A stretch of 64,000 nt of DNA from Dehalococcoidia bacterium (GCA_965208825.1 CBDBPP010000005.1:1038718-1102717), one strand, 5' to 3'; numbered from the stretch's first letter, positions 4,541 through 58,608 are shown. Numbers and translations are program-made. The notes: generated from the letters alone by a model not told the origin.

Positions 4541-5563
4541 TTAGATACGGAAAGCGCCCGAAGCGGCGGCATGGCGCAGGGTCGCATCGACGCTGACGAC
4601 CGGTGGGCCGTCGCGACGGACTTCGATCTCCAGCGTATTGTCCGGGTTCACCGAAAATGCCCGCTCTCCATCCAGGGCCACGGTGGAATGGCGGCGCTCG
4701 ATGGCGACTCGCTGGCCGTCAGCGATGCGCTGCCAGGACTCGATGGAGACTACCGGGACTGATCCCGGAGCGATAGGAGCCCGGAGGTGCAACAGTCCGT
4801 CGGCCGGTTCGTGAGCGGTGCCGTCCTGCGAGAGCCCGCTGCCTGCGATACGGTAGTGCAGGCCGCCCTCGTCGGCCAGGGTGACTGCCTCCAGGCGGGC
4901 CCCAATGGAGGAGAGACCAATGGAGGCCGGCTCCGCGCGGGTGAGGAATACCTCGTAGATGGTGTTCATGTCCCAGATGGCCCGGGTGGCGACGAAACGC
5001 TCCTTGGACAGCGCCACGTCCACCAGGGCAATGTCGCGGTCCTCTCCGTCTATTATCACCGCGATCGTCTTGCTCCGCACGGCCGCCAGGTCCAGGGGAA
5101 CCGTGCCGGTGGCGACCAGGCCCGCGGCCATGCCTGCTGTCGTGCCCTCCACCATTACGGGAAAAACGTTGTTGGTGCCCGTGGATATTGCCACCAGCGG
5201 CAGGTCTCGGGAACCACTGGCCACGGCACGGTTGGTGCCGTCACCGCCCAGGGTGATGACGCAGCCGACGCCCTGGTCTGACATGGCCGCGGCGGCCCGG
5301 ACGGTGTCGCCCTCGTTGTAAAGAGCGGACATGCGCAGCAGTTCCACATCTAGGGAGAGGTTGGGGTCATCGGCGGCGCGTCGGACGAGATGAGAGCTGT
5401 CCGGCATGGCGAGAACGCGGTCCACGCCCACGGACTGCAGGCCCAGCATGGCCCGGCGGACAGTGTTCACCTTCTCCCAGTCGGGGACCACCCGGCCCTG
5501 GGCCACCAGTCGGCGGATATCCTTGCTCGCTGCCGGGTTGGCGATGATCCCTACTGCTGCCAA
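4541..5563 (-). CDS. ATP-NAD kinase / diacylglycerol-kinase-fold family protein (AcoX-like)
   Basis: 340 aa. The GGDGT motif appears as CVITLGGDGTNRAV, and the N-terminus AVGIIANPAASKD is typical of this family. Confidence 0.6.
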   Translation of the reverse strand: MAAVGIIANPAASKDIRRLVAQGRVVPDWEKVNTVRRAMLGLQSVGVDRVLAMPDSSHLVRRAADDPNLSLDVELLRMSALYNEGDTVRAAAAMSDQGVGCVITLGGDGTNRAVASGSRDLPLVAISTGTNNVFPVMVEGTTAGMAAGLVATGTVPLDLAAVRSKTIAVIIDGEDRDIALVDVALSKERFVATRAIWDMNTIYEVFLTRAEPASIGLSSIGARLEAVTLADEGGLHYRIAGSGLSQDGTAHEPADGLLHLRAPIAPGSVPVVSIESWQRIADGQRVAIERRHSTVALDGERAFSVNPDNTLEIEVRRDGPPVVSVDATLRHAAASGAFRI

Positions 5564-5717
5564 TAGCGCCCTCCTTGTGGTCCTGCGGAGATGGCGGCCG
5601 CAAGCGCCCGTTTGCCGCCCATTGTCAAGCAGGTCGCCCTCTTTTTCAACAAGGCGCCAACTAGCCCGTGGCCTGCCGCCGGGGCGGGAGGAGGCAGCTG
5701 CCGGTCCACCCGGCGCG

Positions 5718-6911
5718 TTACATGAAGTTGCGGGTGTGGAGGCTGGAAAGGGCCTCCGCCTGTTCCCCGGAGAATCCCACCCTGGCCAGGTTCCGGCGCC
5801 GGGCGGCGTCCATGTCCTGCATCAACTGCCTCACACGCCGGCTGCCCTGCCGCAGGTCGTTGTGCTCCCAGGAACCGGCGGCCATCAGCACCAGTGCGTC
5901 GTGCACCTCCTGGTTCAGCCCGGCGGTGTGGCGCAGGGCATCATGGCGCCGGTGCACCGACTGAGCTAGCCGGTCCAGCATACCGGGGTCGTGCCTGGCG
6001 GACTCCCGCAAATGTGCCACGCCGAAGGCCACGTGGCGGGCCTCGTCGTTGGCGGCCAGGCTAGTTACCCCGCGGGTGAGCGGGTCGGGCGCGTAACGCT
6101 CGAGGAAGCGGAGGAGCACCAGGAAGGTGCCCTCTCCCATCACCGACAGCAGGAAGGAGGCAATTGCGAAATCCGGCTCGTCCACCAGGGTCTTGAGGGA
6201 GGCCTGGCCTCCGATGGTGGACAGGCCCAGTCTTTCCCGTTTCAGCAGGCCGCGCCGGGTGAATACCTCGATGTGGCGGGCCTCGTCGGCGGCCTGGATG
6301 GCGAGTAACTGCATTACTTCCCGAAAATGTGGGTGGAGCTGTGCCACGAATCGGCTGGGCACCACCAGCGCAGCCGTCTCGTTTTCCACCAGGAAGGTCA
6401 TCAGCTGAACCACGGCGTCCTCGACCTCCGAGGGCAGCTCGAAAGGTTCCTCCCAGGGAAGGGCCGTATTCGGGTCCCACTGGGCGGAGACCGCACTGGC
6501 GTAGAGGCGAACAGCCTCGTCAGCCCACAGGGCGTGCTTGTCGGAGAGACGGAAGGCAAACTCCGGTGTGCCGAGCTCTACGGTAGCGCCCCGGGCGGCC
6601 AGCCCCCAGCGTTGGGGCGGCGATTCCAGCACCGCGCCGGGCTGCCGGGGATCGCCGCCCCCGGCCTGCTCCGCCCCGTCCCAGCGGCCCACGTCGGCAG
6701 TGCCCCGGGAAACGCGATAGTCTCCGGTGCCGTCGATTGGGGCGAACCGGTGCCCGGTGGACCGGCACCACACCTGCAGGTGTAGCCCCAGGTCGGCCGC
6801 TGAGCCGCGAATCTGGATTCCCTGGCCCGGGTTGAGGGAATTGAGGGCCCTTTTTACAAGGAGGTCGCCCCCCTCATCGAAAGGCAGAGAACCCAGGTCC
6901 AGGTTGATCAC
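5718..6911 (-). CDS. Fusion protein: N-terminal TusA/SirA-like domain without the usual Cys, plus a ferritin-like diiron (AurF-like) oxygenase domain
   Basis: Two ExxH motifs (QAADEARHIEVF, LAANDEARHVAFG) plus upstream Glu residues (VENETAAL, VMGEGTF) give the E..ExxH..E..ExxH diiron pattern. The N-terminus VINLDLGSLPFDEGGDLLVKRALNSLNPGQGIQIRGS resembles TusA but lacks the CP motif. I chose GTG 6911 because GTGA overlaps the upstream stop; the track uses ATG 7004, which overlaps the upstream gene by 97 nt. Confidence 0.6.
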   Translation of the reverse strand: MINLDLGSLPFDEGGDLLVKRALNSLNPGQGIQIRGSAADLGLHLQVWCRSTGHRFAPIDGTGDYRVSRGTADVGRWDGAEQAGGGDPRQPGAVLESPPQRWGLAARGATVELGTPEFAFRLSDKHALWADEAVRLYASAVSAQWDPNTALPWEEPFELPSEVEDAVVQLMTFLVENETAALVVPSRFVAQLHPHFREVMQLLAIQAADEARHIEVFTRRGLLKRERLGLSTIGGQASLKTLVDEPDFAIASFLLSVMGEGTFLVLLRFLERYAPDPLTRGVTSLAANDEARHVAFGVAHLRESARHDPGMLDRLAQSVHRRHDALRHTAGLNQEVHDALVLMAAGSWEHNDLRQGSRRVRQLMQDMDAARRRNLARVGFSGEQAEALSSLHTRNFM

Positions 6912-7759
6912 TGGCCCAGGCCCTGGAGGAATGGCTCGATGGTGCCGAACCGGTCCACGGCGCGCTCCAGCTGAAGATAGCCCTCTGTCCTCCCGGGCAG
7001 CCACTGGGTCAGGCCCTCCAGGTCGAGCAGGGGACGCACCTGCGGGTCCGAGTAAGACATGCCCAGCAGCAGCTCTCGGAACACCGCGATGGAGTCGGCG
7101 GGGGCGCCGTCGAGGATCGTGAAATTGCAGTGGTCATACGGCTCGGTGCGGGAGATTACACGGGCCGATCCGGGTGGCAGTGTCCCCTCCTGGGAGAACG
7201 CCAGGTAATTGCCGTCGATGATGCAGGCGGCGTCCACCTCCCTGCGTAGCAGGGCCTGGACGGCTTCCCGCTCCCCTCCTATGTGGTCGCCGTGCTTGCC
7301 GACCAGTAGGTCAAAGGCGACTGCGTTCATGGTGTCGTTATCCCGCAGCCCGGCCTCCGCCAGGTGATTTAGCGGAATGAGGTTCGCCTGCGGGGAGTCC
7401 TGGGCCCCCAGGCCGACGCGCTTGCCCGCCAGGTCCTCCAGCGTCGTTATGCCGGAATCCTCGCGAACGATGATCACGGAGGTCAGGTCGCGGTCGGTGT
7501 CCCGCATGCAGATGGCCTCGGCGTTTCGGCCCAGTTTTTTCGCTCCCGCTTTTGCCTGGAGCCAGGCCAGCGGGGAGTTCCACGCTACGTGGATGTGCCC
7601 GGCCAGGTGGGACTCCACCTGGCGCTCGTAGTTGGAGTAGAGGACATAATCGAAGTCCAGGCCCCGTTCTATGAAGTACTCCCGAAACCCTTCCCAGATG
7701 GTGACCACCTTGGCATCGTAGGCTACGGCGCCCATAAGTAACGTTCCGTTGTCGCTCAT
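6908..7759 (-). CDS. Cytoplasmic PhnD/SsuA-type periplasmic-binding-protein-fold protein with no signal peptide
   Basis: MSDNGTLLMGAVAYDAKV starts directly in a beta-strand. LEDLAGKRVGLGAQDSPQANLIPLNHLAEAGL resembles the PhnD-like motif. ATG 7759 overlaps the upstream TGA stop (ATGA). Confidence 0.55.
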   Translation of the reverse strand: MSDNGTLLMGAVAYDAKVVTIWEGFREYFIERGLDFDYVLYSNYERQVESHLAGHIHVAWNSPLAWLQAKAGAKKLGRNAEAICMRDTDRDLTSVIIVREDSGITTLEDLAGKRVGLGAQDSPQANLIPLNHLAEAGLRDNDTMNAVAFDLLVGKHGDHIGGEREAVQALLRREVDAACIIDGNYLAFSQEGTLPPGSARVISRTEPYDHCNFTILDGAPADSIAVFRELLLGMSYSDPQVRPLLDLEGLTQWLPGRTEGYLQLERAVDRFGTIEPFLQGLGQ

Positions 7760-8889
7760 GAAAACAGCTCCATGCCGCAAACGGCCTTGCCGATGAAATC
7801 GAGCAGCGTGTCAGTGGTGGGGGCCATGATTCCTGCGGCCCTGGCGTCGCGGAAGTAGCGTTCCACGCCCACTTCCTTGCGGAAGGCGGCGCCCCCGCAC
7901 ACGCGCATCCCCATGTCGAGCACCTGGGTGGAAAGCTCCCCGGCCGCGGTCTTGCACTCCAGCACGCGGAGTACCGCGTCCTCTCTGCCCTGTTCCAGCG
8001 CATCGACGGTGTCCAGCAGCAGAACGTGGGCCGAGTCGGTGAGTACTTTCATGCGGGCGATATAGGCCCGGGTGGTCGCGGAATCGGCCAGAGTCTGCCC
8101 GATTTGTTCGTAGCGGGTCTCCGCCGCGTGGGCTGCCGTGCGGGTCACCGCCGCCTGCATCAGGCCAATGGAGCAGGCCGCGCTGCAGACGGAAAACATT
8201 GGCAGCACGATTCCCAGCATCGCGTCAAACCCGCCGCCATCCTCGCCAAGCATGGCAGCGGGGCTTACCTCCACGTTGGTAGCTGCTACGGGGGATGAGT
8301 CGTTACCCCTGAGACCCAGGCCGTTGAAGGCGCCCTGGATCGCCAGTCCCTCGGAGCCGGCGGGCACCAGCCAGAGAGTTGACAGCCCATCGGCCTCCAC
8401 CGGACGGGAGGACCACACGTAGCCGGCAGCGTGGTTCGCCGAGGTTATCCAGCTCTTCTGGGCATTCAGGACAATGGAACCGTTCTCCCTGTCGGCGCTG
8501 CTGGTCGGCGCCCAGAACTGGCTGCGCGAGGTCGACTCGCTGAATGCCAGGGTGCTGAGATGGTCACCGGTCGCGGCCGCACGGCGTATGTCCCCGGTGG
8601 CGAATGTTTCCAGCACCGCCGTGCCCGAGAAGTGCATCGTGGTCACCATGGCGGTGGAGCCGCAGTCCCTGGCGATTCGCTCCACGATGGTGGCGGCGCC
8701 CCGGTGACCGAGGCCAAGGCCGCCCACTTCAGGGGAACTGACAGCGCCGAGCAGGCCCGAATCCCTCAGGGCGTCGATGGCGCCTCCGGGAAAGGATCCA
8801 TCCTGGTCGACCCCTGCCGCGTGAGGGGCAACGGAGGCCGAGCAGACCTGCTCGAGGACCTCGAGGTAGTTGTCCGAATTCGTGCTCAT
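7756..8889 (-). CDS. Acyl-CoA dehydrogenase-family flavoprotein
   Basis: 377 aa with ACAD-like N-terminal, middle and C-terminal architecture (FPGGAIDALRDSGLLG..., ...ERYFRDARAAGIMAPTTD). AGGAGG lies 5 nt upstream of the ATG. Confidence 0.75.
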   Translation of the reverse strand: MSTNSDNYLEVLEQVCSASVAPHAAGVDQDGSFPGGAIDALRDSGLLGAVSSPEVGGLGLGHRGAATIVERIARDCGSTAMVTTMHFSGTAVLETFATGDIRRAAATGDHLSTLAFSESTSRSQFWAPTSSADRENGSIVLNAQKSWITSANHAAGYVWSSRPVEADGLSTLWLVPAGSEGLAIQGAFNGLGLRGNDSSPVAATNVEVSPAAMLGEDGGGFDAMLGIVLPMFSVCSAACSIGLMQAAVTRTAAHAAETRYEQIGQTLADSATTRAYIARMKVLTDSAHVLLLDTVDALEQGREDAVLRVLECKTAAGELSTQVLDMGMRVCGGAAFRKEVGVERYFRDARAAGIMAPTTDTLLDFIGKAVCGMELFS

Positions 8890-9200
8890 TCATCCTCCTG
8901 TTTATTCGGCAGGCGCCGGTCACAGGAGGAGGCAGAGGGCGCTAATCTCCCGCAGTGGCCGACGCATACCCCAGCCCGGACCCGCCGGGCCGGGTGCTGA
9001 TTCAGCGACGGCTCATGGTTGCACTTCCAATAACGATTAGCACGGCCACATCTTATCACGGGAGCTTAAGGAGGCCAACACAATGTAACCGGCGCAAAAC
9101 GCCGGTGGGTGTACAACCCTTCGGGGCAGTCCGTGAGGCTGTCATGCCCTGCCGGGCAACCAACCCGCCAGCCCCGCAGATGAGAACATACAGACAGGCC

Positions 9201-9226
9201 AAGGGGCGGTCCACAGCCCGCCCCTT
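9201..9226. terminator. GC-rich stem-loop downstream of the NIPSNAP gene
   Basis: AAGGGGCGG-tccacagc-CCGCCCCTT forms a 9-bp stem. It belongs to the GGGGCGG/CCGCCCC hairpin family seen elsewhere in the window. Confidence 0.35.
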
Positions 9227-9277
9227 GTTTCCGGAACTAGATGGAAGGGACCCTAGCCCCGCCGTGATCCTGCCGGG

Positions 9278-9589
9278 CTAGGCGGCGGCCGGGACTTTCA
9301 TCACCGAGGTCATGGTTTCGACCTCGATGCGGGCGAGGTGGCTGCGGGCGTGATCCATGATTCCCTGCCACTCGGGGGAAGCGTAGAATGCCGCCTCCTT
9401 GGCGGTTACGTCTTCGGCGTCGTTGAAGGAGCGAATCCAGATGAACAGATCCTTGGCCTCGTTGACCCAAATCCCGTCGATGTTGATCCCGTACTGCTGT
9501 TGGTAGGGCACCAGCTTGTCGTTGAACAGGTCAACCCAATCGTCCATCATGCCCCGGTTCACCGTGTAAGTCCGCAGTTGGTAAATCAT
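9278..9589 (-). CDS. NIPSNAP-family protein
   Basis: 103 aa, starting MIYQLRTYTVNRGMMDDW with ...FIWIRSFND further in. It is a paralogue of 37479..37790 with the same length. Confidence 0.75.
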   Translation of the reverse strand: MIYQLRTYTVNRGMMDDWVDLFNDKLVPYQQQYGINIDGIWVNEAKDLFIWIRSFNDAEDVTAKEAAFYASPEWQGIMDHARSHLARIEVETMTSVMKVPAAA

Positions 9590-9657
9590 GTAGTCCTCCT
9601 AGAGTTGTGTTTTGCTGTCTAATCTTCGGGATTGGAGTCTGCCGACGCCATCCAGGG

Positions 9658-9888
9658 TCAGGCGGCCACGCAAGTGATGGTACGCTCGACCCCCCCGATG
9701 TTCTGCACCCGTGCCGCGACCAGGTCGACGAGGGCCACCATGTCATCCGCCTCGGCAAGGGCGATCAGATCATAGGCGCCGGTGATGATGTCAGCCTCGA
9801 GAACATCGTCCATGCTGCGAAGTTCGTTCAGGACGGTCCTTGCCTGGCCGACACTGGTCTCGATCAGTATGTATGCTCGTGCTGCCAT
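9658..9888 (-). CDS. Stand-alone Lrp/AsnC ligand-binding (RAM) domain protein
   Basis: 76 aa. MAARAYILIETSVGQARTVLNELRSMDDVLEADIITGAYDLIALAEADD matches the AsnC-type C-terminal domain pattern. There is no HTH. Confidence 0.6.
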   Translation of the reverse strand: MAARAYILIETSVGQARTVLNELRSMDDVLEADIITGAYDLIALAEADDMVALVDLVAARVQNIGGVERTITCVAA

Positions 9889-9944
9889 TGTTGATTCTGA
9901 CGGGCCGCGTAACGTGCGGACGAGAAGGAGGTGATGGAGGGACC

Positions 9945-10331
9945 CTACTCTGAAACGGCGGCAGTGCTGGTGATTTCCACCAGGTTATCCGGCGCCCCGA
10001 AATTGACGATGATGGTGGTTCGGGCCGGCTGGTCCGTGGGGAAGAACTCCGCGTATACCTCGTTGAAGCCAGGGAGATCGTCTCGATTACTGACGTAGCA
10101 GGTGTTGGTAAGCACCAAATCCATGGAGGAGCCCGCTGCCTCTAGGATGGCCGATATACGCTGGAGCGTGTACCGGGTCTGCTCCCGGATGTCCGCGCCC
10201 ACCGTGTTGTCCGTGGGGTGGCGTCCGGTGCAGCCCTGAACGAACACCAGGTCCCCGTAACGCACGGCTTGCGAAAGGGGAGCGTTGCCGGAGGTCACCT
10301 TGTCGGTGGAGATGATTTCTTTCCTGGGCAT
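9945..10331 (-). CDS. RidA/YjgF-family reactive-intermediate deaminase
   Basis: 128 aa with the pattern APLSQAVRYGDLVFVQGCTG...IREQTRYTLQRISAILEAAGSSMDLVLTNTCYV...ARTTI. Confidence 0.8.
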   Translation of the reverse strand: MPRKEIISTDKVTSGNAPLSQAVRYGDLVFVQGCTGRHPTDNTVGADIREQTRYTLQRISAILEAAGSSMDLVLTNTCYVSNRDDLPGFNEVYAEFFPTDQPARTTIIVNFGAPDNLVEITSTAAVSE

Positions 10332-10638
10332 AATCGTGAGACCTCCGGGAATCTGCGACTGTGGCCCGCGATGGGGACGCCGTTGATGCGTTCTGGCTGG
10401 CCGGGGGAGGCAAGGCGATGGGATGCCTTGAACGGCACTATTATATGGTCGCCTGTCTCTCTGTCAATTCAGCGACCAATCGGTGGGGCCGTCTCTGACC
10501 GTGCCTTCGAATGCGGGGTACGGTTAGCGGCCCTGCTGGGGGAATGCCGATGGGAGCCGGGGTGAAGTCCTGCGGGGAGGGCGGCGCAGGGAGACACCCA
10601 CGGCACCTTGCGGCTCTCAGGGCCCTCCATTCACGGGT

Positions 10639-13008
10639 TCAATTGGCGTCCATTATCTGGGGCTCGTTGATGGCGCCACTGTGCTGGGCTGCCCGTTGCC
10701 GGTGAATCGCCCGCCACACCCGCTCGGGCTTAAGGGGTATATCTAGGTCAAGCGTCCCGGACCGGGACAGAGCGTCGGCCACGGCGTTGAAAACGGCCGG
10801 CACGGCCGCGATGGTTGGCGTCTCCCCCATGCCCTTAACCCCAAGCGGGTTGAAGGGGCTGGGCGTACCCATAAGTTCCACCGTGAAATCCGGCAGGTGC
10901 TTTGCCAGGGGCATGGCGTAGTCCATGAAGCTGCCGGTGAGCAGCGGACCGCTGGCGTCCCAGACCGCCTCCTCCATCAGTGCCGCGCCGATACCTTGGG
11001 CCAGGCCTCCGTGGACCTGGCCGTGCACCACCATGGGATTCACGATGGCGCCGAAGTCGTTCACGGAGAAGAAGTCGACGAGCTCAACCGCTCCGTTGTC
11101 GGAGTCGACCCGGACCACCGCGACGTTGGCTGTGAATGGGAAGGTATAGCCGTCCGGTTCCCAGAATACATTCGCCTCGAGGCCCCGGTCGACGCCCTCC
11201 GGTACCGGCTGGGGGCCGAAGGAGTAGGCAGCAACATCCCGCCAGGTGACGTACCGGTCGGGGATGTCCTCGGCGAAGAAGCCCCCCGACCGCAGTTCGA
11301 CGAACTCCGGCTCGGTGCGCAGTAGCGCGGCGGCCAGCTGCGTCGCATTCTCCTTCACCCGTCGGCTGGCCGTCACCACGGCCGACCCACCGACAACTAT
11401 GGAGCGGCTGGCCCTGGTACCGGTGCCGGAGGCGATCAGGTGGGTATCTCCGTAGATTACGCTCACGTTCTCCAGCGGCACCGACAGCTCGTCGGCGGCG
11501 ATCTGGGCAAAGGTCGTCTCGTGGCCCTGACCGTGGGGTGACGTTCCGGTATAGACCGTCACCGACCCCGTCTGGTCCACCCGCACGATGGAAGTCTCAT
11601 AGCCGGGCCTCACGCTGAAGGTGCCCGGTGGGCCGAATCCCGAGGCGTCAACGGTGGTGGCGATCCCTATGCCAAGGAACTCACCTTTCTCTTGCTTTTC
11701 AGCCTGCCGTTGGCGTAGCCCTGCGTAGTCAGCCAGCTCCAGGACCCTTTCCAGCGCCAGATGGTAGTCGCCGCTGTCGTGCAGGCGGCCCGTGGGAGTA
11801 CGGTAGGGGAGGGCACTGGCGGGAATCAGGTTGCGCCGCCGCACCTCGGCGGGGTCCATGGCAAGGGCGTTGGCAATGCCGTCCATCACCCGTTCCGCGA
11901 CATACGCGGTCGCGTGCTGTCCGTAGCCGCGGTACGGACCGACGGTCATCTTGTTGGTGTAGACTCCGAACACCTCCCAGTGCAGGTGCTCCACGGTGTA
12001 GGCGCCCGCCGCCCCCGATGGCGTGAGGGACTCGGCCACACCGTGAGACCCTCCGAAGGAGTAGGCCCCCAGGTCGGTGTAATACTGTGTCCTCAGGGCC
12101 AGCAGCTTGCCGTCATTCCGATAGGCGGCCTCGACGTACTGCACCTCACCTCGCCCGTGGATGGTGGAGGTGAACTCCTCCTCCCGCAGTCCATCCCAGC
12201 GCACCGGCCGGTTCAGGCGCATCGACAGGGCGGCAGCGATGACGGTCTCGGCGTAGGTGTCTATCTTGGCGCCGAAGCCGCCGCCCACGTCCCGGGACAG
12301 CACCCGGATCCGGCTTTCGGCGATTCCCAGCACCCCGGCCACTGCCTTCCTTTCCAGGTGGGGCCCCTGGGTGGAGATCCAGAGGGTGATCTCGTCGACG
12401 CCCCGTTCGTAGCTGGCGGTCACGGCCCTGGGCTCCATGGCGTTGGGGACAAGGCGCGGCTCCGCGATGCGAAGGGACAGTATCCCGTCGGCCTGGGCAA
12501 AGGCCGCGTCCGGGTCGCCAGCCGTCCGGGTGCTGTAGACGCACAGGTTGGTTCCCATCTCCTCGTGGACCAGCGGCGCCCCGGCCTCCAGGGCCCGTTC
12601 CAGGTCTACGACTGCCGGCAACGGCTCGTATTCCACCTCGATTAGCTCCAGGGCGTCCCGGGCAATGTATGCGTTTTCCGCCACCACCACGGCGACCGGC
12701 TCGCCCTCGTACCTGGCAACTTCCGCCGCGATTGGCCAGCGGCTCACGGCCTTCATGTGCTCGAGAACGCCAGCCAGGGGGAGCTGGGCGGTGCAGTTCG
12801 CTCTGAATTCCGCTCCGGTTACCACCGCCACCACCCCGGGAAGTTCCTTGGCCGCAGTGGCGTCGACGTTCACGATCCGGGCGTGGGCGTGGGGGCTTCG
12901 GAGCACCATCATCACCGCGGCGTCGCGGGGCAGGATGTCGCCCGTGTAGCGGCCCTCACCCTGCATCAGCCGAAAGTCCTCCTTGCGGCGGATCGACGCG
13001 CCTACCAT
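10639..13008 (-). CDS. Xanthine dehydrogenase/CO dehydrogenase-family molybdopterin-binding large subunit
   Basis: MVGASIRRKEDFRLMQGEGRYTGDI is the canonical N-terminus of this family. The active-site-loop region reads VGPYRGYGQ, which is neither the AYxCSFR nor the AYRGAGR type. The track ORF runs to 13983, but its first 325 codons are antisense to the DM13 gene. An alternative ATG lies at 13041. Confidence 0.85.
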   Translation of the reverse strand: MVGASIRRKEDFRLMQGEGRYTGDILPRDAAVMMVLRSPHAHARIVNVDATAAKELPGVVAVVTGAEFRANCTAQLPLAGVLEHMKAVSRWPIAAEVARYEGEPVAVVVAENAYIARDALELIEVEYEPLPAVVDLERALEAGAPLVHEEMGTNLCVYSTRTAGDPDAAFAQADGILSLRIAEPRLVPNAMEPRAVTASYERGVDEITLWISTQGPHLERKAVAGVLGIAESRIRVLSRDVGGGFGAKIDTYAETVIAAALSMRLNRPVRWDGLREEEFTSTIHGRGEVQYVEAAYRNDGKLLALRTQYYTDLGAYSFGGSHGVAESLTPSGAAGAYTVEHLHWEVFGVYTNKMTVGPYRGYGQHATAYVAERVMDGIANALAMDPAEVRRRNLIPASALPYRTPTGRLHDSGDYHLALERVLELADYAGLRQRQAEKQEKGEFLGIGIATTVDASGFGPPGTFSVRPGYETSIVRVDQTGSVTVYTGTSPHGQGHETTFAQIAADELSVPLENVSVIYGDTHLIASGTGTRASRSIVVGGSAVVTASRRVKENATQLAAALLRTEPEFVELRSGGFFAEDIPDRYVTWRDVAAYSFGPQPVPEGVDRGLEANVFWEPDGYTFPFTANVAVVRVDSDNGAVELVDFFSVNDFGAIVNPMVVHGQVHGGLAQGIGAALMEEAVWDASGPLLTGSFMDYAMPLAKHLPDFTVELMGTPSPFNPLGVKGMGETPTIAAVPAVFNAVADALSRSGTLDLDIPLKPERVWRAIHRQRAAQHSGAINEPQIMDAN

Positions 13009-13203
13009 CTTTTCACTGCCGCCTGTTTCCGAGGACTCCATGCACGCCCTCCCGGGATACGCACCCTGGGTCAAGATTCGGAGACATAATAACTTATATT
13101 TCAATTGATGGCGATAAAGAGTTGGGAACTCTATAATGTGACTAAACCCGTCTAAGCATTTACCGAATCCGGCAAGGTGGAAGACGGGCAGGAGGTAGAT
13201 CGA

Positions 13204-14169
13204 ATGGCAACGTTTGGAGATCTCGAAAGAGCCCTGGCAGATCTCTACCCCTACAGATGGGCCATCGGGGCCGTGGTGCTGGTGCTGATTGCGGCCTTCT
13301 TTGGCCTTGCCTGGTGGCGAGGCTGGCACCTGTGGGCCTGGCGATACAAGAAGCCCCTGGGAATCGTCACCGTTCCGCTGCTGGTGGTCACCCTGTGGCT
13401 GGGCTGGTCGCTGGGTTCCCCGTTGTTCACGAACGTGACGGTTGACGAGGAGTTCCCCTTCGCGGTCAATGCTACCGTCCCCGAGGGTATGGAGCGGGAG
13501 GAGGTCGAGGAAGTACTCTCTGGCTTCTCCAAGGTGGACACTCCGGTGATGGAGACCATGCCGGCTCCCGCTGCCATCGAGGCCAGCGTCGCCGTCGCTT
13601 CCGGGGGGATGGTTTCCGACGGGACGGGCGGCAGTGACGCCCTCCTTGTGCTGACGCCCAAGCGGCAGGCCGTCATTGAGGAAGGCATGGCCATGGCGAT
13701 GAAGGCGACCGAGTCCGACAGTATGGAGGAGGCCGCCGCCATGACCGAGGAGGCCGTGGTCATGATGGAGGAGGTGATGGAGGAGTCGCAGATGATGGCG
13801 CAGCAGCAGCCGGCCAGCGAGGTGCAGGCGGTGGCTATGGGCAGCTTCAAGGACGCCGACGCCTTCCACCGGGGCAGCGGCACCGCAACCATCTACCGGA
13901 CTCCGGACGGCGCCGAGGTCCTGCGGCTGGAGGACCTGGACGTGACCAACGGCCCCGCGCTGCACGTGGTGCTTTCCACGCATCCCGACCCGGAGCGGTC
14001 AGAGCAGGTGAAGCAGGAGGGCTACGTCGACTTGGGCGATTTGAAGGGCAACCGGGGCAACCAGAACTATCCCATACCGGCCGGGGTGGACACCTCCATT
14101 CACAAGAGCGTGGTGATCTACTGCTACCCCTTCGCGGTGGTGTTCAGCGTAGCGACGCTGGAGGGATAA
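13204..14169 (+). CDS. Membrane-anchored DM13-domain protein with a Met/Glu-rich linker
   Basis: GGAGG lies 8 nt upstream of ATG 13204. There are two N-terminal TM helices and a linker MAMAMKATESDSMEEAAAMTEEAVVMMEEVMEESQMMAQQQ. The C-terminal GSFKDADAFHRGSGTATIYRTPDGAEVLRLEDLDVTNGPALHVVLS matches the DM13 pattern. Confidence 0.65.
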   Translation: MATFGDLERALADLYPYRWAIGAVVLVLIAAFFGLAWWRGWHLWAWRYKKPLGIVTVPLLVVTLWLGWSLGSPLFTNVTVDEEFPFAVNATVPEGMEREEVEEVLSGFSKVDTPVMETMPAPAAIEASVAVASGGMVSDGTGGSDALLVLTPKRQAVIEEGMAMAMKATESDSMEEAAAMTEEAVVMMEEVMEESQMMAQQQPASEVQAVAMGSFKDADAFHRGSGTATIYRTPDGAEVLRLEDLDVTNGPALHVVLSTHPDPERSEQVKQEGYVDLGDLKGNRGNQNYPIPAGVDTSIHKSVVIYCYPFAVVFSVATLEG

Positions 14170-15741: not shown

Positions 15742-18075
15742 CTACCCCGCCTCCGCATCCTGCAGCGCCTGCCAGACCTTCTGCGGCGTCAGGGGCGTGT
15801 CGATGTGCTTGACCCCGGCGACCGACAGGGCGTCCATCACCGCGTTGGCGATGGCGACGGGCGCGGCCAGGGTGGGCAGCTCACCGATGCCCTTCACGCC
15901 CAGGGCGGTTATGTCCGAAGGCGTCTCGATGCTGCTGTCCAGTTCGAAGTCGGGCAGGTCGATGGACTTGGGCAGGACATAGTCCATCATGCTGCCGCTG
16001 AGCGGCTGCCCGGTTGAGTCGTAGACCATTCCCTCCCAGAGGGCCTGACCGATGCCTTGGGCGATGGCCCCGTGGACCTGCCCGTCGTAGAGCATGGGGT
16101 TTACGACCTTGCCGGAATCGTGGGCCCCGATGTACTGCAGGATCCGGATGGCGCCATTTTCGCGGGAGACCTCCACCACCGCCACATGAGAGCCGAAGGC
16201 ATACGGGCTCCTGTCGAGTACGTTGGTGCCGTTGAAGTCCAGTCCCGGCTCCTCGCCCGGAGGCAGCAGCTCCTCGTTGTGGGCCGCGGCGGCCACCTGG
16301 GCGAAGGGAACGCTGCGGGTCGGGTTGGCCCGGTCGACGGCCCGGCCCTCGGCCAGGTCGACGTTCTCCGGCGGGCAGTCCAGCAGGTGCCCGGCCACAA
16401 CCCTCATCTTCTCCCCGGCCTCATGGACCACGTTGTAGAGCACGGTGCCGCCGGCGATCATGCCGCGGCTGGCGGAGGTGCCGCCGCCGGCGGGCAGGAT
16501 GTCGGAGTCGCTGTGTCGCACCCGGACATCGCCCGGTGCTATGCCCAGCCGGTCGGCAACCACCTGGGCGAAGGTGGTCTCGGTCCCCTGGCCGTGGGGC
16601 GAGATGCCGGTGTGGACCTCGACGTCGCCGTCGGGACCGATGATGCATCGGGCGTGCTCCTCGAGGAAGGTGACCTTGGCGCCGGAACCCTTCACTACGG
16701 CGGCGAGGCCGACACCGATCAGCGGCCCACCGGCCTCCGCCTGCTGGCGGGAGCGCTGGCGCCATTCCTGGTAGCCGGCCATTTCCAGCGACCGGTCAAA
16801 GACCGCCTCATACTCGCCGGAGTCGTAGATGATGCCGGTGGGGGTCTCGTAGGGAAAGGCGTCGGGGGCGATGAAGTTGCGTCGCCTCACCTCGGCGGGA
16901 TCGAGGTCCAGCTCCTGGGCCACCATGTCCACGGCGCGCTCCATGCAGAAGGCCGCCTCGGGCCCACCAGCGCCCCGGTAGGCGCCGGTAACCGGCTTGT
17001 TGGTGGCCACACCCACGACCTCCACGGACATGGCCGGGGTGCGGTAGGGGCCGGTGAGGCGGTGGCTGGTCAGGATGGGCACCGTGGGCGTTGACATGAA
17101 GAAATAGGCGCCCAGGTCGGCGATGACTCTCACCCGGATGCCCAGCAGCGTTCCGTCGCTTTTGGCCGCCGCCTCCAGGTCGACGCTGTGGCCCCGGCCG
17201 TGGAAGCAGAGCATGTTTTCCTGGCGGCTTTCCACCCACTTTATGGGACGGCCCAGCTTGATGGCCAGGTACGGGATGGCCAGCTCCTCAGGGAAGAAGC
17301 AGCCCTTTTCGCCGAAGCCGCCGCCGACATCGGGGCAAGCCAGCCGCACCGATTCCAGCGGCCGGTCAAGCAGAGTGGCAATGTGCTCGCGCATCTCATG
17401 GGGGTGCTGGGTCGAGTCCCAGACCGTCAGCAGGCCGGCAGCATGCCCTGAGCTTGCCGAAGGATCGTATTCGGCGATGAGGCCGCGGGGCTCCATGGGG
17501 GCGGGCGCGAGGCGCTGCACGTCGAACCGCTGCCGGATCACGCAGTCGGCCTCAGCGAAGGCGGCGTCGAGATCGCCGCCGGCGTTGACGGTTCGGAGGA
17601 CGACGTTGGTGCCCAGGTGTTCGTGGATTACCGGAGCGTTGCCGCCAATGGCCTCGTATGGGTCGATCACCGCGGGGAGTATCTCGTAGTCGACGTTCAC
17701 CAGTTCCACCGCGTCCTCTGCGGTATAGATGTTATCTGCCAGGACGATGGCCACCGGCTGCCCGGCATAACAGGCCTTGTCGACGGCGAGAGCCGGATGC
17801 CGGGGCGGGTGTATCTCGTCGGCGTCGGCGCCCACCCGCGTGGGTAGCTGGGCGATGTCCGCCATGTCCCCGGCGGTGATGACCGCCACCACGCCGGGCA
17901 GCGAGGTGGCCGCTGAGGTGTCAATGCTGCGGATGAGGGCGTGCCCGTGGGGGCTGCGTATGATCAGGGCCTGAAGCATCCCGGGCCGGGTCATGTCGTC
18001 GACAAAGGAGGACTGCCCGGTCAGGAGACGGTGATCCTCGAATCGCTTGATGGACTGCCCCGTGTAAGTCGTCAT
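15742..18075 (-). CDS. Xanthine dehydrogenase/CoxL form-II-like molybdopterin-binding large subunit
   Basis: 777 aa. The N-terminus is YTGQSIKRFEDHRLLTGQSSFVDD and the loop is VTGAYRGAGGPEA (AYRGAG type). Confidence 0.85.
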   Translation of the reverse strand: MTTYTGQSIKRFEDHRLLTGQSSFVDDMTRPGMLQALIIRSPHGHALIRSIDTSAATSLPGVVAVITAGDMADIAQLPTRVGADADEIHPPRHPALAVDKACYAGQPVAIVLADNIYTAEDAVELVNVDYEILPAVIDPYEAIGGNAPVIHEHLGTNVVLRTVNAGGDLDAAFAEADCVIRQRFDVQRLAPAPMEPRGLIAEYDPSASSGHAAGLLTVWDSTQHPHEMREHIATLLDRPLESVRLACPDVGGGFGEKGCFFPEELAIPYLAIKLGRPIKWVESRQENMLCFHGRGHSVDLEAAAKSDGTLLGIRVRVIADLGAYFFMSTPTVPILTSHRLTGPYRTPAMSVEVVGVATNKPVTGAYRGAGGPEAAFCMERAVDMVAQELDLDPAEVRRRNFIAPDAFPYETPTGIIYDSGEYEAVFDRSLEMAGYQEWRQRSRQQAEAGGPLIGVGLAAVVKGSGAKVTFLEEHARCIIGPDGDVEVHTGISPHGQGTETTFAQVVADRLGIAPGDVRVRHSDSDILPAGGGTSASRGMIAGGTVLYNVVHEAGEKMRVVAGHLLDCPPENVDLAEGRAVDRANPTRSVPFAQVAAAAHNEELLPPGEEPGLDFNGTNVLDRSPYAFGSHVAVVEVSRENGAIRILQYIGAHDSGKVVNPMLYDGQVHGAIAQGIGQALWEGMVYDSTGQPLSGSMMDYVLPKSIDLPDFELDSSIETPSDITALGVKGIGELPTLAAPVAIANAVMDALSVAGVKHIDTPLTPQKVWQALQDAEAG

Positions 18076-25798: not shown

Positions 25799-27046
25799 CT
25801 ACACCACCCGTACCGGATGCGGTAGGGGCTGGTTGAAGAGGTAGCCCTTTTCGTTGAAAGGGACGGTGGAGGGCTGGGTGTTGCCCGCCGAATCGGTGGC
25901 CCGGGTCATGATCACGCCATCACCGGGCGCCGCCTCCCACGTGAACTCGAACCGGGCCCAGGAGTACTGCGTCTGCGGGCCCAGCCGGTCGACATCCGCC
26001 CAGGTGCCGCCCCGGTCAGCGCTCCATTCCACGCGGGCGATGGGGCCGTGGGGGGAGTGAGCATAGCCGTGGAGCCGGTTCCGGCCTGCCGTGAGCCGGG
26101 CCGGCCAGGGCAGCGCCAGTGCGCTCTTGATGGTCTGGGCGTTGGCCACCCGGCCCTCTGCCCTGCCCTCGGGCGGATAGTCGTCGCCGATGAGCACGTA
26201 GGACGTCGTGTTGTTGCGGGTCCAGAGCGGCTCGGAGGAAACCTCGATGCGGCCCAGCCACTTGATGCTGCTGCTGCCCACCCAGCCGGGAACCAGAGCC
26301 CGGACGGGGTAGCCGTGGTCGCGGGGCAGGTCCGCTCCGTTGAGTCCGTAGGCGAGCAGTGTGTCCGGATGCATGGCCTTGTCGGCAGGAATGACGCGGC
26401 GGAACCCGCCCTCCGGAGAACCGGTATCCAGGCCCACCAGCAGCACGCTGGCCGCGCTGTCCCTGATGCCGGCCATGGTCAGGACCTCGCGGAGGGGCGT
26501 GCCGATCCACTCGCCGTTGCTTACACCGCCGGTCCTCCACTGCGTGCCGGAGGCGGCGCGTCCCTGCACCAGGTCGAACATGGCGCGGTGGTTGCCGCCG
26601 CACTCCAGGTAGCACATCAGGACCCGGGCCGGAAGGCTGCGGATTTCGGCGTAGGACAGCTCCAGCGGAGTGTCGACGGCGTCGCCTTCGACAGTGAGGC
26701 GCCAGGAGGCGGCATCGAGGTCCATGCTGGCGGAATTGTTGCGAACGAAGAAAAGGTCGTTGGGTGTGACCAGGCCCTGCATCAGTTCCAGTCGGGCCTC
26801 CCAGCTCTTTTCGTCATGGACGATGAAGGGTGCCGGGTCCTTTAGGATGGAGCGGCCGGCGGGCCCCGTTCCCGCCGCTACGGGGGTGTCGGTGGGGACC
26901 GCCTCCGGGGTCTGCGGCACGCCGCAGGCGGCCAGAACGGCCCCCGCGCCCCCGACGGCCAGAAGCGCGAGGAAGTGGCGGCGGCTCATGCAAGACTTCG
27001 CCACCTGCCACAGCGCCGCCGTTTCTGTCTCCTGCTTGTCCTGCAT
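25799..27046 (-). CDS. Sulfite-oxidase-family molybdopterin oxidoreductase (SorA-like) with a Tat signal and lipobox
   Basis: GGAGAGGG lies upstream of ATG 27046. The leader is ...MSRRHFLALLAVGGAGAVLAACG. The Mo-ligand region is MCYLECGGNHRAMF, and a C-terminal dimerisation domain is present. The track ORF extension to 28210 is antisense to nudC. An alternative start lies at 26989. Confidence 0.8.
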   Translation of the reverse strand: MQDKQETETAALWQVAKSCMSRRHFLALLAVGGAGAVLAACGVPQTPEAVPTDTPVAAGTGPAGRSILKDPAPFIVHDEKSWEARLELMQGLVTPNDLFFVRNNSASMDLDAASWRLTVEGDAVDTPLELSYAEIRSLPARVLMCYLECGGNHRAMFDLVQGRAASGTQWRTGGVSNGEWIGTPLREVLTMAGIRDSAASVLLVGLDTGSPEGGFRRVIPADKAMHPDTLLAYGLNGADLPRDHGYPVRALVPGWVGSSSIKWLGRIEVSSEPLWTRNNTTSYVLIGDDYPPEGRAEGRVANAQTIKSALALPWPARLTAGRNRLHGYAHSPHGPIARVEWSADRGGTWADVDRLGPQTQYSWARFEFTWEAAPGDGVIMTRATDSAGNTQPSTVPFNEKGYLFNQPLPHPVRVV

Positions 27047-27199
27047 GCCAATCCCTCTCCCGGCTTTCCCGTTTTCCGGCACAGCCATTATAGGCCGGGG
27101 CTCGCCGGGCGAGTTCCGTCGGCTCCGGTAGCTGCCGGTGGGCTGATTCGCCTGCCCGTTGTTGTAGAATAGCGCGACGAAACCCGAAGGGATGGGAAC

Positions 27200-28138
27200 A
27201 TGAACGAACGACGTGATCGGATCACCCATGTTTTCGCTGGCAACCCGCTGGACCGCGGCGAGGTGGAGCGGCGGGACGAAGAGTGGATCACAGCCCGGGC
27301 GTCCGACCCGGCCAGCCGGATGCTGCCGATGTGGCAACTGAACGTGCCAGTGTCGGAGGACCACTCCCTGGTCTGGATGAGCCCGGAGGAGATGGGTCGG
27401 CTCAACGTGGATGCCGAGCGCATCTACCTGGGCATGCTGGAGGGCATTGCTCACTTCGTGGTGGACGTGTCGGCCGCCGACCGGGGGGATATCGAGGGGA
27501 ACGGGCTCACCTTCGAGGACGCCCGTAACACTGCGGAATACATGAGCAGCAAGGACTCGGGGATGGTGGCGCAGGCGCGTGCCCAGCTCAGTTGGCACAG
27601 CCGCCACGGCTTCTGCGCCGTCTGCGGGCAGCCGACCTATATCGCCCGGGGCGGCCAGGTGCGCCGTTGCCGTCCCAAAGAGGACGGGGGCTGCGGCACC
27701 GAGCACTATCCACGCACCGACCCCGTGGTGATCACCGTGGTGCACGACGGCGAGCGCTGCCTGCTGGGGCAGTCGCGGGGACGGCTGGTGGCCATGCGGC
27801 GCTACTCGGCCCTGGCCGGGTTCATGGACCAGGGGGAGTCGATCGAGGAGGCGGTGGCCCGCGAGGTGATGGAGGAGGCCGGCATCCAGGTCAGCGCCGT
27901 CCGCTACCACTCGTCGCAGCCGTGGCCCTTTCCGTCGTCGCTGATGATCGGCTGCCATGCCGACGCCGCCACTAATGAAATCCACTTCGACGCCGAGGAG
28001 ATGGCGGACGTTCAGTGGTTCTCTCGGGAGGAGGTGCGGCTGGCCTTGGAAGAGCGCAGCGAGATCCTGGCCGTCCCGGGTCCCACCGCCATCGCCCACC
28101 ACCTGATACGAGCCTGGGCCAACGGCGAGGTGGGCTAA
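27200..28138 (+). CDS. nudC: NAD(+) diphosphatase (NADH pyrophosphatase)
   Basis: The zinc ribbon reads CAVCGQ...CRPKEDGGCG, the Nudix box reads GFMDQGESIEEAVAREVMEEAGI, and the NudC-specific motif reads SQPWPFPSS. Confidence 0.85.
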   Translation: MNERRDRITHVFAGNPLDRGEVERRDEEWITARASDPASRMLPMWQLNVPVSEDHSLVWMSPEEMGRLNVDAERIYLGMLEGIAHFVVDVSAADRGDIEGNGLTFEDARNTAEYMSSKDSGMVAQARAQLSWHSRHGFCAVCGQPTYIARGGQVRRCRPKEDGGCGTEHYPRTDPVVITVVHDGERCLLGQSRGRLVAMRRYSALAGFMDQGESIEEAVAREVMEEAGIQVSAVRYHSSQPWPFPSSLMIGCHADAATNEIHFDAEEMADVQWFSREEVRLALEERSEILAVPGPTAIAHHLIRAWANGEVG

Positions 28139-28215
28139 CAGGAAACAGTGCAATCCCCGAGCATGGAGATGAGGCCCACCTGAACAAGAGCAGACTAAGC
28201 CGGGAGGCAAGCGAT

Positions 28216-56211: not shown

Positions 56212-56248
56212 TGTCCCGCGTCAACTACTTTTGCCGATTGAGCGTCAA

Positions 56249-57025
56249 TTAGTTTTGCCGGTTCACCTCCTCTGCGTGGCCCCGTTGCTGTGCCGCATCG
56301 GTGCGGTAGCTGGGGACGTCAAACTCCAGGATGACGGAGTGGTGCACCACCCGGTCGATGGCCGCCGCGGTGGCCATGGGGTTGGCGAAGATGCGTTCCC
56401 ACTCGGAGAAGACCAGGTTGGACGTTATGCCCAGGGACCGGCGCTCGTAGCGCTCGGCGATGAGGGTGAAGAGGACCTCGGACTCCTCGGTCCCCTGGGG
56501 CAGGTAGCCCAGGTCGTCCAGCAGCAGGAAGTCGAAGTTGTCCAGCTTGCGCAGCCGGCGGGGCAGGTCCAGGTCGCGCTTGGCGGCGAGGAGGTCCTGC
56601 ACCAGGCGGTAGGCTGGGACGAAGAGGACGGAGTAGCCGGCTTCCACCAAACGGTGGCCCAGGGCGCACAGGGCGTGGGTCTTGCCGGTGCCGGGCAGCC
56701 CGAAAGCCAGCACGTTGACGCCGCGCTCCACGAAGCTCCCCTGGGCCAGATGATCCATTTGCTGCCGGAGCGCCAGGGGCATCCGGTGGTGATCGAAGGT
56801 CTCCCAGGTCTTGCCCGAGGTCAGCCGGGACTCCTTGCGCAGCCGGTGGGTGCGCCGTTGACGGCGATCCTCGGCCTCCTGCTCCAGCACCTCCAGGAGG
56901 ATGGGCAGGGCGTCGCCGTGGCCGGCGGCGGTGAAACGCTCCACCGACTGAGCTTCCATGGTGGGCAACTTGAATTCGTGGCACAGCTGGCCGATGCGCT
57001 CTTGCACGACGCTGGCGTTCATCAT
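56249..57025 (-). CDS. istB: IS21-family helper ATPase IstB
   Basis: 258 aa from ATG 57025. The Walker A motif is GLPGTGKTH and Walker B is FLLLDDLGY. The track ORF extension to 57625 overlaps istA out of frame. Confidence 0.85.
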   Translation of the reverse strand: MMNASVVQERIGQLCHEFKLPTMEAQSVERFTAAGHGDALPILLEVLEQEAEDRRQRRTHRLRKESRLTSGKTWETFDHHRMPLALRQQMDHLAQGSFVERGVNVLAFGLPGTGKTHALCALGHRLVEAGYSVLFVPAYRLVQDLLAAKRDLDLPRRLRKLDNFDFLLLDDLGYLPQGTEESEVLFTLIAERYERRSLGITSNLVFSEWERIFANPMATAAAIDRVVHHSVILEFDVPSYRTDAAQQRGHAEEVNRQN

Positions 57026-58524: not shown

Positions 58525-58608
58525 TCCGGCACCTCCGTGCCGGAGGGTTTACCTCATCTCTGACCGGCAAAAATAATCGACGCTACCGGCATTCCTTATT
58601 GTCGTTAA

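Follow-up and report, generated by a model that had tools for sequence, protein, structure and literature searches.

Three genes lie head to tail on the minus strand at positions 5718-8889 of a 64,000-nucleotide stretch of DNA from a Dehalococcoidia bacterium (GCA_965208825.1 CBDBPP010000005.1:1038718-1102717), the whole of which is called the window here. The first encodes a flavoprotein with the acyl-CoA dehydrogenase (ACAD) fold, the second a cytoplasmic protein with the PhnD-type fold of type II periplasmic binding proteins (PBPs), referred to below as the substrate-binding protein (SBP)-fold protein, and the third a fusion of a TusA-like domain to a ferritin-like domain with a predicted diiron site. 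The trio recurs in many bacterial phyla, and its first two members are related to the Rv1679 and Rv1680 families of mycobacteria, in which the third gene encodes a radical S-adenosylmethionine (radical-SAM) enzyme instead.

Organization of the operon

Gene boundaries were taken from a listing of open reading frames (ORFs) and from reading of the window sequence (Table 1). A Shine-Dalgarno-like AGGAGG at 8894-8899 precedes gene 1, and a GGAG at 7768-7771 lies 8 nt 5' of the start of gene 2. The ORF of gene 3 is formally open up to 7004; its start is placed at the GTG because all homologues begin at that position. Products of exactly 397, 283 and 377 amino acids are found in public gene calls. 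The four-nucleotide overlaps that a previous interpretation of the same DNA (the sequence-only reading) had described at both junctions are present in the sequence. However, such overlaps are commonplace in operons and so carry little weight alone; the significance of the trio comes from its conservation. A search of 5300-10700 with Rfam models, admitting E values up to 1, gave neither a riboswitch nor another RNA, and 11 related loci gave none at gathering scores.

Table 1. Coordinates of the three genes, their junctions and the domains of the fusion protein.
Feature	Position	Strand	Product, start or basis
Gene 1, ACAD-fold flavoprotein	7756-8889	minus	377 aa, ATG start
Gene 2, cytoplasmic PhnD-fold (type II PBP) protein	6908-7759	minus	283 aa, ATG at 7759-7757
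Gene 3, TusA-like/ferritin-like (predicted diiron) fusion	5718-6911	minus	397 aa, GTG at 6911-6909
ATGA stop/start overlap, gene 1/gene 2	7756-7759	minus	sequence
GTGA stop/start overlap, gene 2/gene 3	6908-6911	minus	sequence
Gene 3, TusA-like domain, residues 1 to ~72	6696-6911	minus	hhalign to E. coli TusA
Gene 3, linker and N-terminal extension of the diiron domain, residues ~73-160	6432-6695	minus	invariant columns, pLDDT >83
Gene 3, ferritin-like helical core, residues ~161-397	5718-6431	minus	ligand conservation, Foldseek

Conservation of the trio

The fusion protein was searched for in 185,579 genomes, with one genome per species, giving about 400 matches, and the best 80 loci were inspected. 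These come from Dehalococcoidia, Acidobacteriota, Myxococcota, Planctomycetota, Verrucomicrobiota, Rokubacteriota, Vulcanimicrobiota and others. Relatives of the fusion within Dehalococcoidia are 74-80% identical, and the proteins of the trio are 55-80% identical across phyla. Among these 80 loci, the SBP gene lies directly upstream of the fusion gene wherever the contig allows, and the ACAD gene is next upstream in about 70. Of 126 loci in which the pair genes are complete, 109 have the order ACAD, PBP, fusion. The ACAD/SBP junction has a median gap of +11 nt, with overlaps in 28 of 113 cases, and the SBP/fusion junction a median of -10 nt, with overlaps in 89 of 107 cases, 33 of them by 4 nt (starts estimated). 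From locus to locus, the three proteins co-vary in their identity to the window counterparts (r = 0.74-0.84). In a census of 111 flanking genes, no Pfam family exceeds four occurrences, the number reached by FtsH and by rhodanese; SelA occurs twice. The trio is a self-contained module, conserved far beyond chance. The co-occurrence of the three genes elsewhere, on which the sequence-only reading had made its proposal depend, is thus seen in the gene neighborhoods, as a unit across at least seven phyla.

In one acidobacterial group (L086:481-11209, also L020, L022 and L037), five genes separate the ACAD gene from the SBP/fusion pair. They encode a 439-residue protein of no known family, a DUF6152 protein, a second such protein of 289 residues, a peptidyl-prolyl isomerase and a TonB-dependent-receptor-like protein with CarboxypepD_reg, Plug and beta-barrel domains. 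The last of these, as a predicted outer-membrane protein, hints at uptake of an external substrate.

The ACAD-fold protein lacks the catalytic base

The first protein matches the N-terminal, middle and C-terminal Pfam ACAD domains (PF02771, PF02770 and PF00441) at 47.9, 44.2 and 67.8 bits, above the respective cut-offs of 22.9, 33.3 and 22.4, in agreement with the ACAD-family assignment of the sequence-only reading. Its best NCBIfam match is NF049984 (Rv1679/FadE16 family ACAD), at 359.4 bits with a cut-off of 600; the next family scores 118.7. As it falls below the cut-off and yet matches this model best by far, the protein is placed in a sister clade of that family. Its closest solved relatives are short-chain ACADs.

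In comparison with solved short- and medium-chain ACADs, the IYEGT motif with the catalytic Glu reads IMAPT, and the position of the alternative Glu (E254 of IVD, E261 of LCAD) is Phe232. The same is seen across the family: the position of E376 of MCAD is Ala in 115 and Gly in 11 of 126 members, and the IVD/LCAD position is Phe in all 126. The FAD motifs W147-I-T149, R274 and G332-G333 show a conservation of 97% or more and line up with their SCAD equivalents; to judge from these motifs the product is a flavoprotein, with FAD binding predicted. Since both catalytic Glu positions have been lost, it is not a conventional alpha,beta-dehydrogenase, and a role as an ACAD of beta-oxidation was rejected for want of a catalytic base. 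The previous suggestion that an ACAD-fold protein need not be a dehydrogenase thus holds for this one.

A cytoplasmic SBP-fold protein with an invariant polar cluster

The second protein matches PF12974 at 115.9 bits (gathering score 27), and in a profile search of the PDB its best match is the PhnD-like 7s6g (1e-20). It carries no signal peptide, and in each of the 17 homologues aligned the PBP fold sets in near residue 8, as expected from the signal-less PhnD-type protein that had been proposed. The best curated match is NF049985 (Rv1680 family SBP-like protein), at 243.4 bits with a cut-off of 400, and 47 invariant columns are common to the window protein and Rv1680-type members. Against the model of the PhnD phosphonate transporter SBP (TIGR03431) it reaches 49 bits, with 261 required.

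Like the oxyanion binders PhnD, PtxB and AioX, the protein has the PF12974 fold and aromatic cleft residues, with Y44 and W60 retained at the ligand-binding positions of PhnD-type binders. Unlike them, it is cytoplasmic and lacks ABC genes, its counterpart of the S-T-S phosph(on)ate motif of PhnD and PtxB reads D121-S-P-Q, and it has an additional invariant polar cluster (R86, D87, D89, D121, H156, D158, E163, H210 and C211) that is kept even in actinobacterial homologues at 37-42% identity. The His, Asp, Glu and Cys residues of this cluster suggest an active or metal site more than a transport receptor. No ABC permease or ATPase genes are found in the flanks of the trio. A role in phosphonate transport was rejected on the combined grounds of the missing signal peptide, the missing ABC genes and the altered motif. 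Cytosolic enzymes with the PBP fold are known in THI5 and MqnA; however, the window protein has no sequence relationship to MqnA, and its match to NMT1/THI5 is at the level of the clan only.

The TusA-like/diiron fusion

No curated model exists for the family of the third protein, whose homologues form over 5,400 clusters at 90% identity, with a length of about 397 residues in nearly every one. Its scores lie below the cut-offs of all the curated models it resembles: 17.8 of 29.6 bits for AurF (PF11583), 17.4 of 28.6 for TusA (PF01206) and 20.3 of 194 for R2lox (NF006200); its relatives reach 16-26 bits with AurF. The sequence-only reading had held beforehand that a match to a characterised family would speak against its proposal, and at every curated threshold the fusion matches none.

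In hhalign the family profile aligns to E. coli TusA (Prob 91%, E 1e-6), and one family member (P0143) passes the Pfam TusA threshold with 30.5 bits. Homology of the N-terminal domain to TusA is thus well supported at the level of profiles, apart from formal Pfam membership of the window sequence. The position of the persulfide Cys of TusA is an invariant Phe11 in the fusion, the CPxP motif is absent, and no Cys is seen in the TusA loop in fusion alignments of 15 or 34 sequences. This bears out the TusA-like domain without its canonical Cys that had been read from the sequence. With the Cys gone, sulfur relay in the known way is excluded, and a docking module is more likely; TusA-type sulfur relay within the trio was rejected for the same reason.

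The remainder of the protein consists of an extension with an invariant W102-G-L-A-A-R107 (WGLAARG) motif, which is also found in distant homologues without a TusA-like domain, and a segment carrying the predicted diiron ligands: E176/E178, E210 and H213 (D209-E210-x-x-H213), E260, and E290 and H293 (D289-E290-x-x-H293). In an alignment of 34 sequences, the most distant at 28% identity, each of these positions is either invariant or conserved in at least 90%, so that the E..ExxH..E..ExxH motif of the sequence-only reading stands. An AlphaFold model built from the 34-sequence alignment (pLDDT 94, pTM 0.86) has a TusA-like alpha/beta domain, the WGLAARG extension and a helical ferritin-like core; an earlier model from 15 sequences (pLDDT 59.8) was discarded as poor. 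In Foldseek the model matches ADO, R2lox, VlmB and the R2 subunit of ribonucleotide reductase with probability 1.00, at 17-23% identity and E values of about 1e-4, and the matches to ADO have TM scores of 0.72-0.81 on the target. The family profile matches PDB sequences of R2lox (the Geobacillus protein, 4e-8, over two helices only), a VlmB homologue (2e-6) and TusA (2e-3), and a single-sequence search of the PDB with the fusion gives no match. The intact ligands and the nearest folds, which are those of O2-activating di-metal enzymes, suggest that the modeled domain is competent to hold a diiron center, the metal being predicted. Assignment to the AurF type in particular is not supported, the nearest folds being those of ADO, R2lox and VlmB, the last together with its Kitasatospora homologue. 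With ADO, R2lox, VlmB and AurF the fusion has in common the four-helix bundle and the E...ExxH...E...ExxH ligands; it differs from them in its unique extension of about 90 residues, its N-terminal TusA-like domain and its ACAD- and SBP-fold partners. The usual partners of multicomponent diiron monooxygenases, an NADH:ferredoxin-type reductase and a small effector protein, are found neither in nor around the trio in any locus examined.

Several variants of the fusion were seen. One full-length member of the family (P0182, 382 aa) has lost several metal ligands and has degenerate DEARH motifs, and is possibly a dead paralogue. At L156:5819-6858 the TusA-like domain has its own frame of about 100 residues and is followed, in another frame, by a ferritin-like segment at 35% identity; either the fusion is split at this locus or a sequencing frameshift has separated its parts. 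Proteins that look like an SBP-fusion or a longer fusion (P0127, P0136, P0154 and P0178) are frameshifted read-throughs and were rejected as real fusions. A search of plasmids with the fusion finds only distant TusA-less relatives (25-31% identity). One of these, on a plasmid of Streptomyces sp. NBC_00536 (L174:510-11801), lies amid a secondary-metabolite cluster with adenylating enzymes, two carrier proteins, a PaaI thioesterase, an ACAD and anthranilate synthase, and another, on a Burkholderia gladioli plasmid (L173), is in a cluster with polyketide synthase (PKS) genes and aminotransferases.

Relationship to Rv1678-Rv1681 and exchange of the third gene

NCBIfam holds four linked models: NF049986 (membrane protein), NF049984 (ACAD), NF049985 (SBP-like protein) and NF049973 ('MoeX' radical-SAM protein). 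They cover the Rv1678-Rv1681 genes of Mycobacterium tuberculosis, in which proteins of the ACAD and SBP folds, homologous to those of the window, are encoded by adjacent genes in the same order. Rv1679/Rv1680 and the window pair alike lack the ACAD catalytic Glu and have the invariant SBP residues in common, and Rv1681 and the third window protein both begin with a homologous Cys-less TusA-like module. They differ in that the catalytic domain of Rv1681 is radical-SAM and that of the window protein is ferritin-like with a predicted diiron site, and in that the window proteins fall below the curated Rv1679 and Rv1680 cut-offs (359 vs 600; 243 vs 400), as a sister clade. What is new here is the connection, drawn by sequence comparison, of the trio to these curated families of no known function. 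No functional study was found in the literature under Rv1678-Rv1681, fadE16, moeX or the combined domain names, nor any paper describing the trio. No tblastn match to Rv1678- or Rv1681-family proteins is present in the 64-kb window, and no DoxX membrane protein is encoded anywhere in it.

A search of plasmids with the SBP-fold protein returned three loci, all from Actinomycetota. The Mycolicibacterium vanbaalenii locus encodes, in this order, an Rv1678-family membrane protein, an ACAD, an SBP-like protein and an Rv1681-family radical-SAM protein (535 bits), and that of Rhodococcus opacus has DoxX/Rv1678, ACAD and SBP, after which the record ends. The SBP-fold protein of Miltoncostaea oceani is 60% identical to that of the window, and its cluster comprises DoxX, an AhpD-like CMD protein, an Rv1681-like radical-SAM protein, GT2, DUF2064-NUDIX, ACAD, SBP, DUF2515 and a radical-SAM/SPASM protein, with selD nearby. 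This cluster (L090:1-10844, on megaplasmid NZ_CP064357.1) represents a third architecture of the system. The DUF2515 protein behind the Miltoncostaea pair was considered as a relative of the fusion and is unrelated.

A scan of metagenomes with the SBP profile gave 80 loci. The gene following SBP is the fusion in 58 of these, the contig ends in 12, and in four (L102, L113, L136 and L164) the next gene encodes an Rv1681-like radical-SAM protein; none of the 80 has both. The ACAD and SBP proteins of the four radical-SAM-type loci are as close to those of the window (56-59% identity) as the ones of fusion-type loci from other phyla. In a neighbor-joining tree of ACAD plus SBP, the radical-SAM-type and Miltoncostaea-type loci nest among the fusion-type loci, with the Mycobacteriales pair as outgroup.

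Pairs of O2-dependent and radical-SAM enzymes for one reaction are known in AcsF/BchE and HemF/HemN. The present case is similar in that otherwise homologous gene sets have either a diiron or a radical-SAM third gene, never both. However, the likeness is one of gene content, and unlike in those pairs the split is not simply one of aerobes and anaerobes; such a split was not adopted as an explanation because aerobic mycobacteria carry the radical-SAM form.

A TusA module common to the related systems

A hidden Markov model of the N-terminal domain of the fusion detects, at 76-94 bits, two free small genes that head the L164 and L136 operons. In L164 both are TusA proteins with a G-C-G cysteine (Pfam, 50 and 38 bits) and are followed by DsrE (54 bits), an MtaA/CmuA-like thiol methyltransferase of the URO-D family, an ACAD (384 bits with NF049984), an SBP-like protein (232 bits with NF049985), a radical-SAM protein that matches positions 61-325 only of the Rv1681 model, and an amino-acid permease. 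This eight-gene variant equipped with a sulfur relay (L164:1736-6697, metagenome contig WNFJ01339617.1) was not found described. L136 has the same two TusA genes.

In a profile of 22 Rv1681-family proteins, the N-terminal ~65 residues align to the N-terminal domain of the fusion (Prob 60%, E 8.5e-5 for the full profiles; Prob 94%, E 1e-7 for the domain alone), and the free TusA proteins align to the Rv1681 N-terminus (Prob 94.7%, E 6e-8). A W-C-(R/A)-x-x-G-(H/N) motif is common to these TusA-type domains. By profile alignment, the first 60 positions of the Rv1681 model, which are missing in the L164 radical-SAM protein, are a TusA-like domain. Among TusA/DsrE proteins, the fusion domain is closest to the Cys-bearing TusA encoded with DsrE in the radical-SAM-type operons.

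The shared TusA module thus defines three architectures of one system. In one, two free Cys-bearing TusA proteins and DsrE accompany the radical-SAM enzyme; in the second, found in Mycobacteriales, a Cys-less, loop-deleted TusA-like domain is fused to the radical-SAM enzyme; and in the third, that of the window, a TusA-like domain with Cys replaced by Phe is fused to the predicted diiron domain. The catalytic domain has probably been exchanged on a common TusA-derived adaptor, in a module-and-swap architecture.

Proposed function and alternative explanations

The trio can be viewed as a multi-component di-metal oxygenase system whose parts come from known superfamilies, and as a variant of the Rv1678-81-type system. 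The preferred explanation, held at slightly less than an even chance, is that it represents the diiron, O2-using form of a system in which a TusA-derived adaptor can carry different radical-generating enzymes. The three proteins would work as one cytoplasmic complex, in which the dead TusA domain would dock the oxygenase onto its partners. The SBP-fold protein would most likely be the docking site, which is favored because its gene almost always overlaps the fusion gene. The diiron center would use O2 for the hydrogen abstraction or oxidation that is done elsewhere by the radical-SAM enzyme through a 5'-deoxyadenosyl radical. The SBP-fold protein would hold a small polar substrate, other than a phosph(on)ate, in its cleft, or would itself act catalytically. 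As it lacks the catalytic base, the flavoprotein would either perform a redox step other than alpha,beta-dehydrogenation or supply electrons to the diiron site. The substrate would be a small polar metabolite, probably with sulfur (a thiol or organosulfur compound). This sulfur theme is more doubtful than the scheme as a whole. It is drawn from the relay of two TusA proteins and DsrE together with the MtaA-like thiol methyltransferase in L164-type operons, and from DoxX, AhpD-like, DsbF/CcdA, glutaredoxin and selD genes near the actinobacterial loci; the radical-SAM and Cys-bearing TusA/DsrE proteins of the relatives point to sulfur-related rather than nitrogen chemistry.

Several points count against this explanation. 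No biochemical study of the four families was found in the literature, and substrate and chemistry are read from context. The sulfur theme comes from a few radical-SAM-type loci, the trio itself has lost the TusA Cys, and its flanks are only weakly linked to sulfur (rhodanese in 4 of 111, SelA in 2 of 111). The radical-SAM and diiron enzymes could catalyse different reactions on a shared scaffold, and to our knowledge the flavin of an ACAD is not established as a reductase for diiron centers. In addition, the nesting of radical-SAM-type among fusion-type loci involves short internal branches, in a tree without support values.

An improbable further reading makes the SBP-fold protein no binding protein but the catalytic or carrier core of a new pathway, with the substrate on or beside the invariant Cys211 in a cluster of His, Asp and Glu. 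The base-less flavoprotein and the swappable diiron or radical-SAM enzyme, docked through the TusA adaptor, would work on this substrate, and the product would be a sulfur-related cofactor or metabolite not yet known, common to mycobacteria and to soil and marine bacteria from many phyla.

Other chemistries were weighed for the same genes. Modification of an acyl thioester, in which the ACAD-like protein and an ADO-, R2lox- or desaturase-like diiron enzyme would act on a fatty-acyl-CoA or a carrier-bound acyl group by hydroxylation, desaturation or deformylation, with the SBP-fold protein binding the head group, would agree with the short-chain ACADs as closest solved relatives of the first protein and with the long-chain fatty ligands found in crystals of the best Foldseek matches of the fusion (ADO, R2lox and Kitasatospora 'protein 60', which has ADO activity). 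It would also suit the surroundings of the TusA-less diiron relatives, which lie among adenylating enzymes, acyl carrier proteins, PaaI thioesterase and ACAD in Streptomyces, in a PKS cluster in B. gladioli, or beside a CoA-binding protein. Such lipid-type chemistry nevertheless appears unlikely: the catalytic base is absent from all 126 ACAD-like sequences, the flank census links neither a CoA ligase nor a thioesterase or carrier protein to the trio, the invariant SBP cleft residues are polar or charged, and the related systems carry genes for sulfur relay, not for lipids. N-oxygenation or N-N chemistry was judged less probable still. It would combine a VlmH/DnmZ-like ACAD-fold N-hydroxylase with an AurF/VlmB-like diiron N-oxygenase acting on an amine held by the SBP-fold protein, and would yield a nitro, nitroso, hydroxylamine or azoxy compound. 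The AurF matches of the window protein and several relatives are in its favor, weak as they are and all under the curated threshold, as is the presence of the azoxy synthase VlmB and a homologue among the best fold and profile matches, with the largest number of residues covered (TMq 0.49). ACAD-fold enzymes without the catalytic Glu do include flavin N-hydroxylases, and an ammonium group could be bound by the invariant Asp121, which stands where the anion motif has a Ser. However, by score the ACAD-like protein is far closer to true ACADs than to DszC- or HsaA-type monooxygenases, no flavin reductase is linked, and such a pathway offers no evident role for the radical-SAM and TusA/DsrE relatives.

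The SBP-fold protein could instead be the substrate of a maturation reaction, with a cross-link or protein-derived cofactor at the invariant H210-C211 or H156/D158 cluster installed by a diiron oxidase here and by a radical-SAM enzyme elsewhere, aided by the flavoprotein, following a logic like that of QhpD/QhpG in quinohemoprotein amine dehydrogenase. Beyond its own family, the models nearest to Rv1681 are the peptide- and protein-modifying maturases StsB, ScmE, WgkB and AlbA. R2lox, a close fold relative of the fusion, forms a cross-link within itself. The SBP/fusion junction is the tightest in the operon, and the module needs no further linked gene. Yet the case is wholly circumstantial, Rv1681-type enzymes have no SPASM domain, and the SBP cleft keeps the PhnD-type aromatic ligand positions Y44 and W60; maturation ranks marginally below N-oxygenation among the improbable readings. 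The least credible explanation is a chance mixture of a beta-oxidation ACAD, a binding protein of a phosphonate or sulfonate transporter and a TusA fused by accident to a ferritin. It would take at face value the automatic annotations ('acyl-CoA dehydrogenase', 'PhnD/SsuA/transferrin family substrate-binding protein' and 'TusA-related sulfurtransferase'), and can hardly be reconciled with a unit kept across phyla whose identities co-vary, with an SBP-fold protein that has no signal peptide, no ABC partners and an altered anion motif, or with the absence of both the TusA Cys and the ACAD catalytic Glu.

The module is abundant and strongly conserved across phyla, with no linked genes. Its tie to Rv1678-Rv1681, the adaptor-based exchange, and the relatives with TusA/DsrE and methyltransferase give both systems points of attack that can be tested. 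Should the swap prove functional, it would add to the cases in which one reaction is carried out by either an O2-dependent or a radical-SAM enzyme, and would show a sulfur-carrier domain reused for docking.

Other features of the window

Directly upstream of the trio, the minus strand encodes NIPSNAP (9278-9589), a 76-residue AsnC/Lrp protein consisting of the RAM domain only (9658-9888) and RidA (9945-10331). This arrangement recurs in the Dehalococcoidia contigs L001-L003 and not in other phyla; synteny of these genes, and of the NAD-kinase-like and TauE genes downstream, extends only to close relatives within the Dehalococcoidia. The surroundings of the trio are unusually rich in molybdoenzymes (10639-13983, 15742-18075 and 25799-28210), a linkage that is not conserved in other phyla. 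They comprise two large subunits of molybdenum hydroxylases of the xanthine dehydrogenase family and a molybdenum protein of the sulfite oxidase type with an N-terminal extension of about 490 residues. The first hydroxylase ORF is over-extended at its 5' end, with the real start probably near residue 345. A link of the trio to the neighboring Mo-hydroxylase, RidA and NIPSNAP genes was rejected, as the synteny is confined to Dehalococcoidia.

At the far end of the window (53324-63976), type I PKS ORFs flank a transposase with an rve integrase core and a Mu-transposase C-terminal domain (57022-58524). The ORF at 53324-56224 has acyl carrier protein and ketosynthase domains and a partial acyltransferase, and that at 60455-63976 has a partial acyltransferase, a dehydratase and a methyltransferase. 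Neither side has a complete acyltransferase match, so that an insertion sequence may have interrupted the PKS locus.

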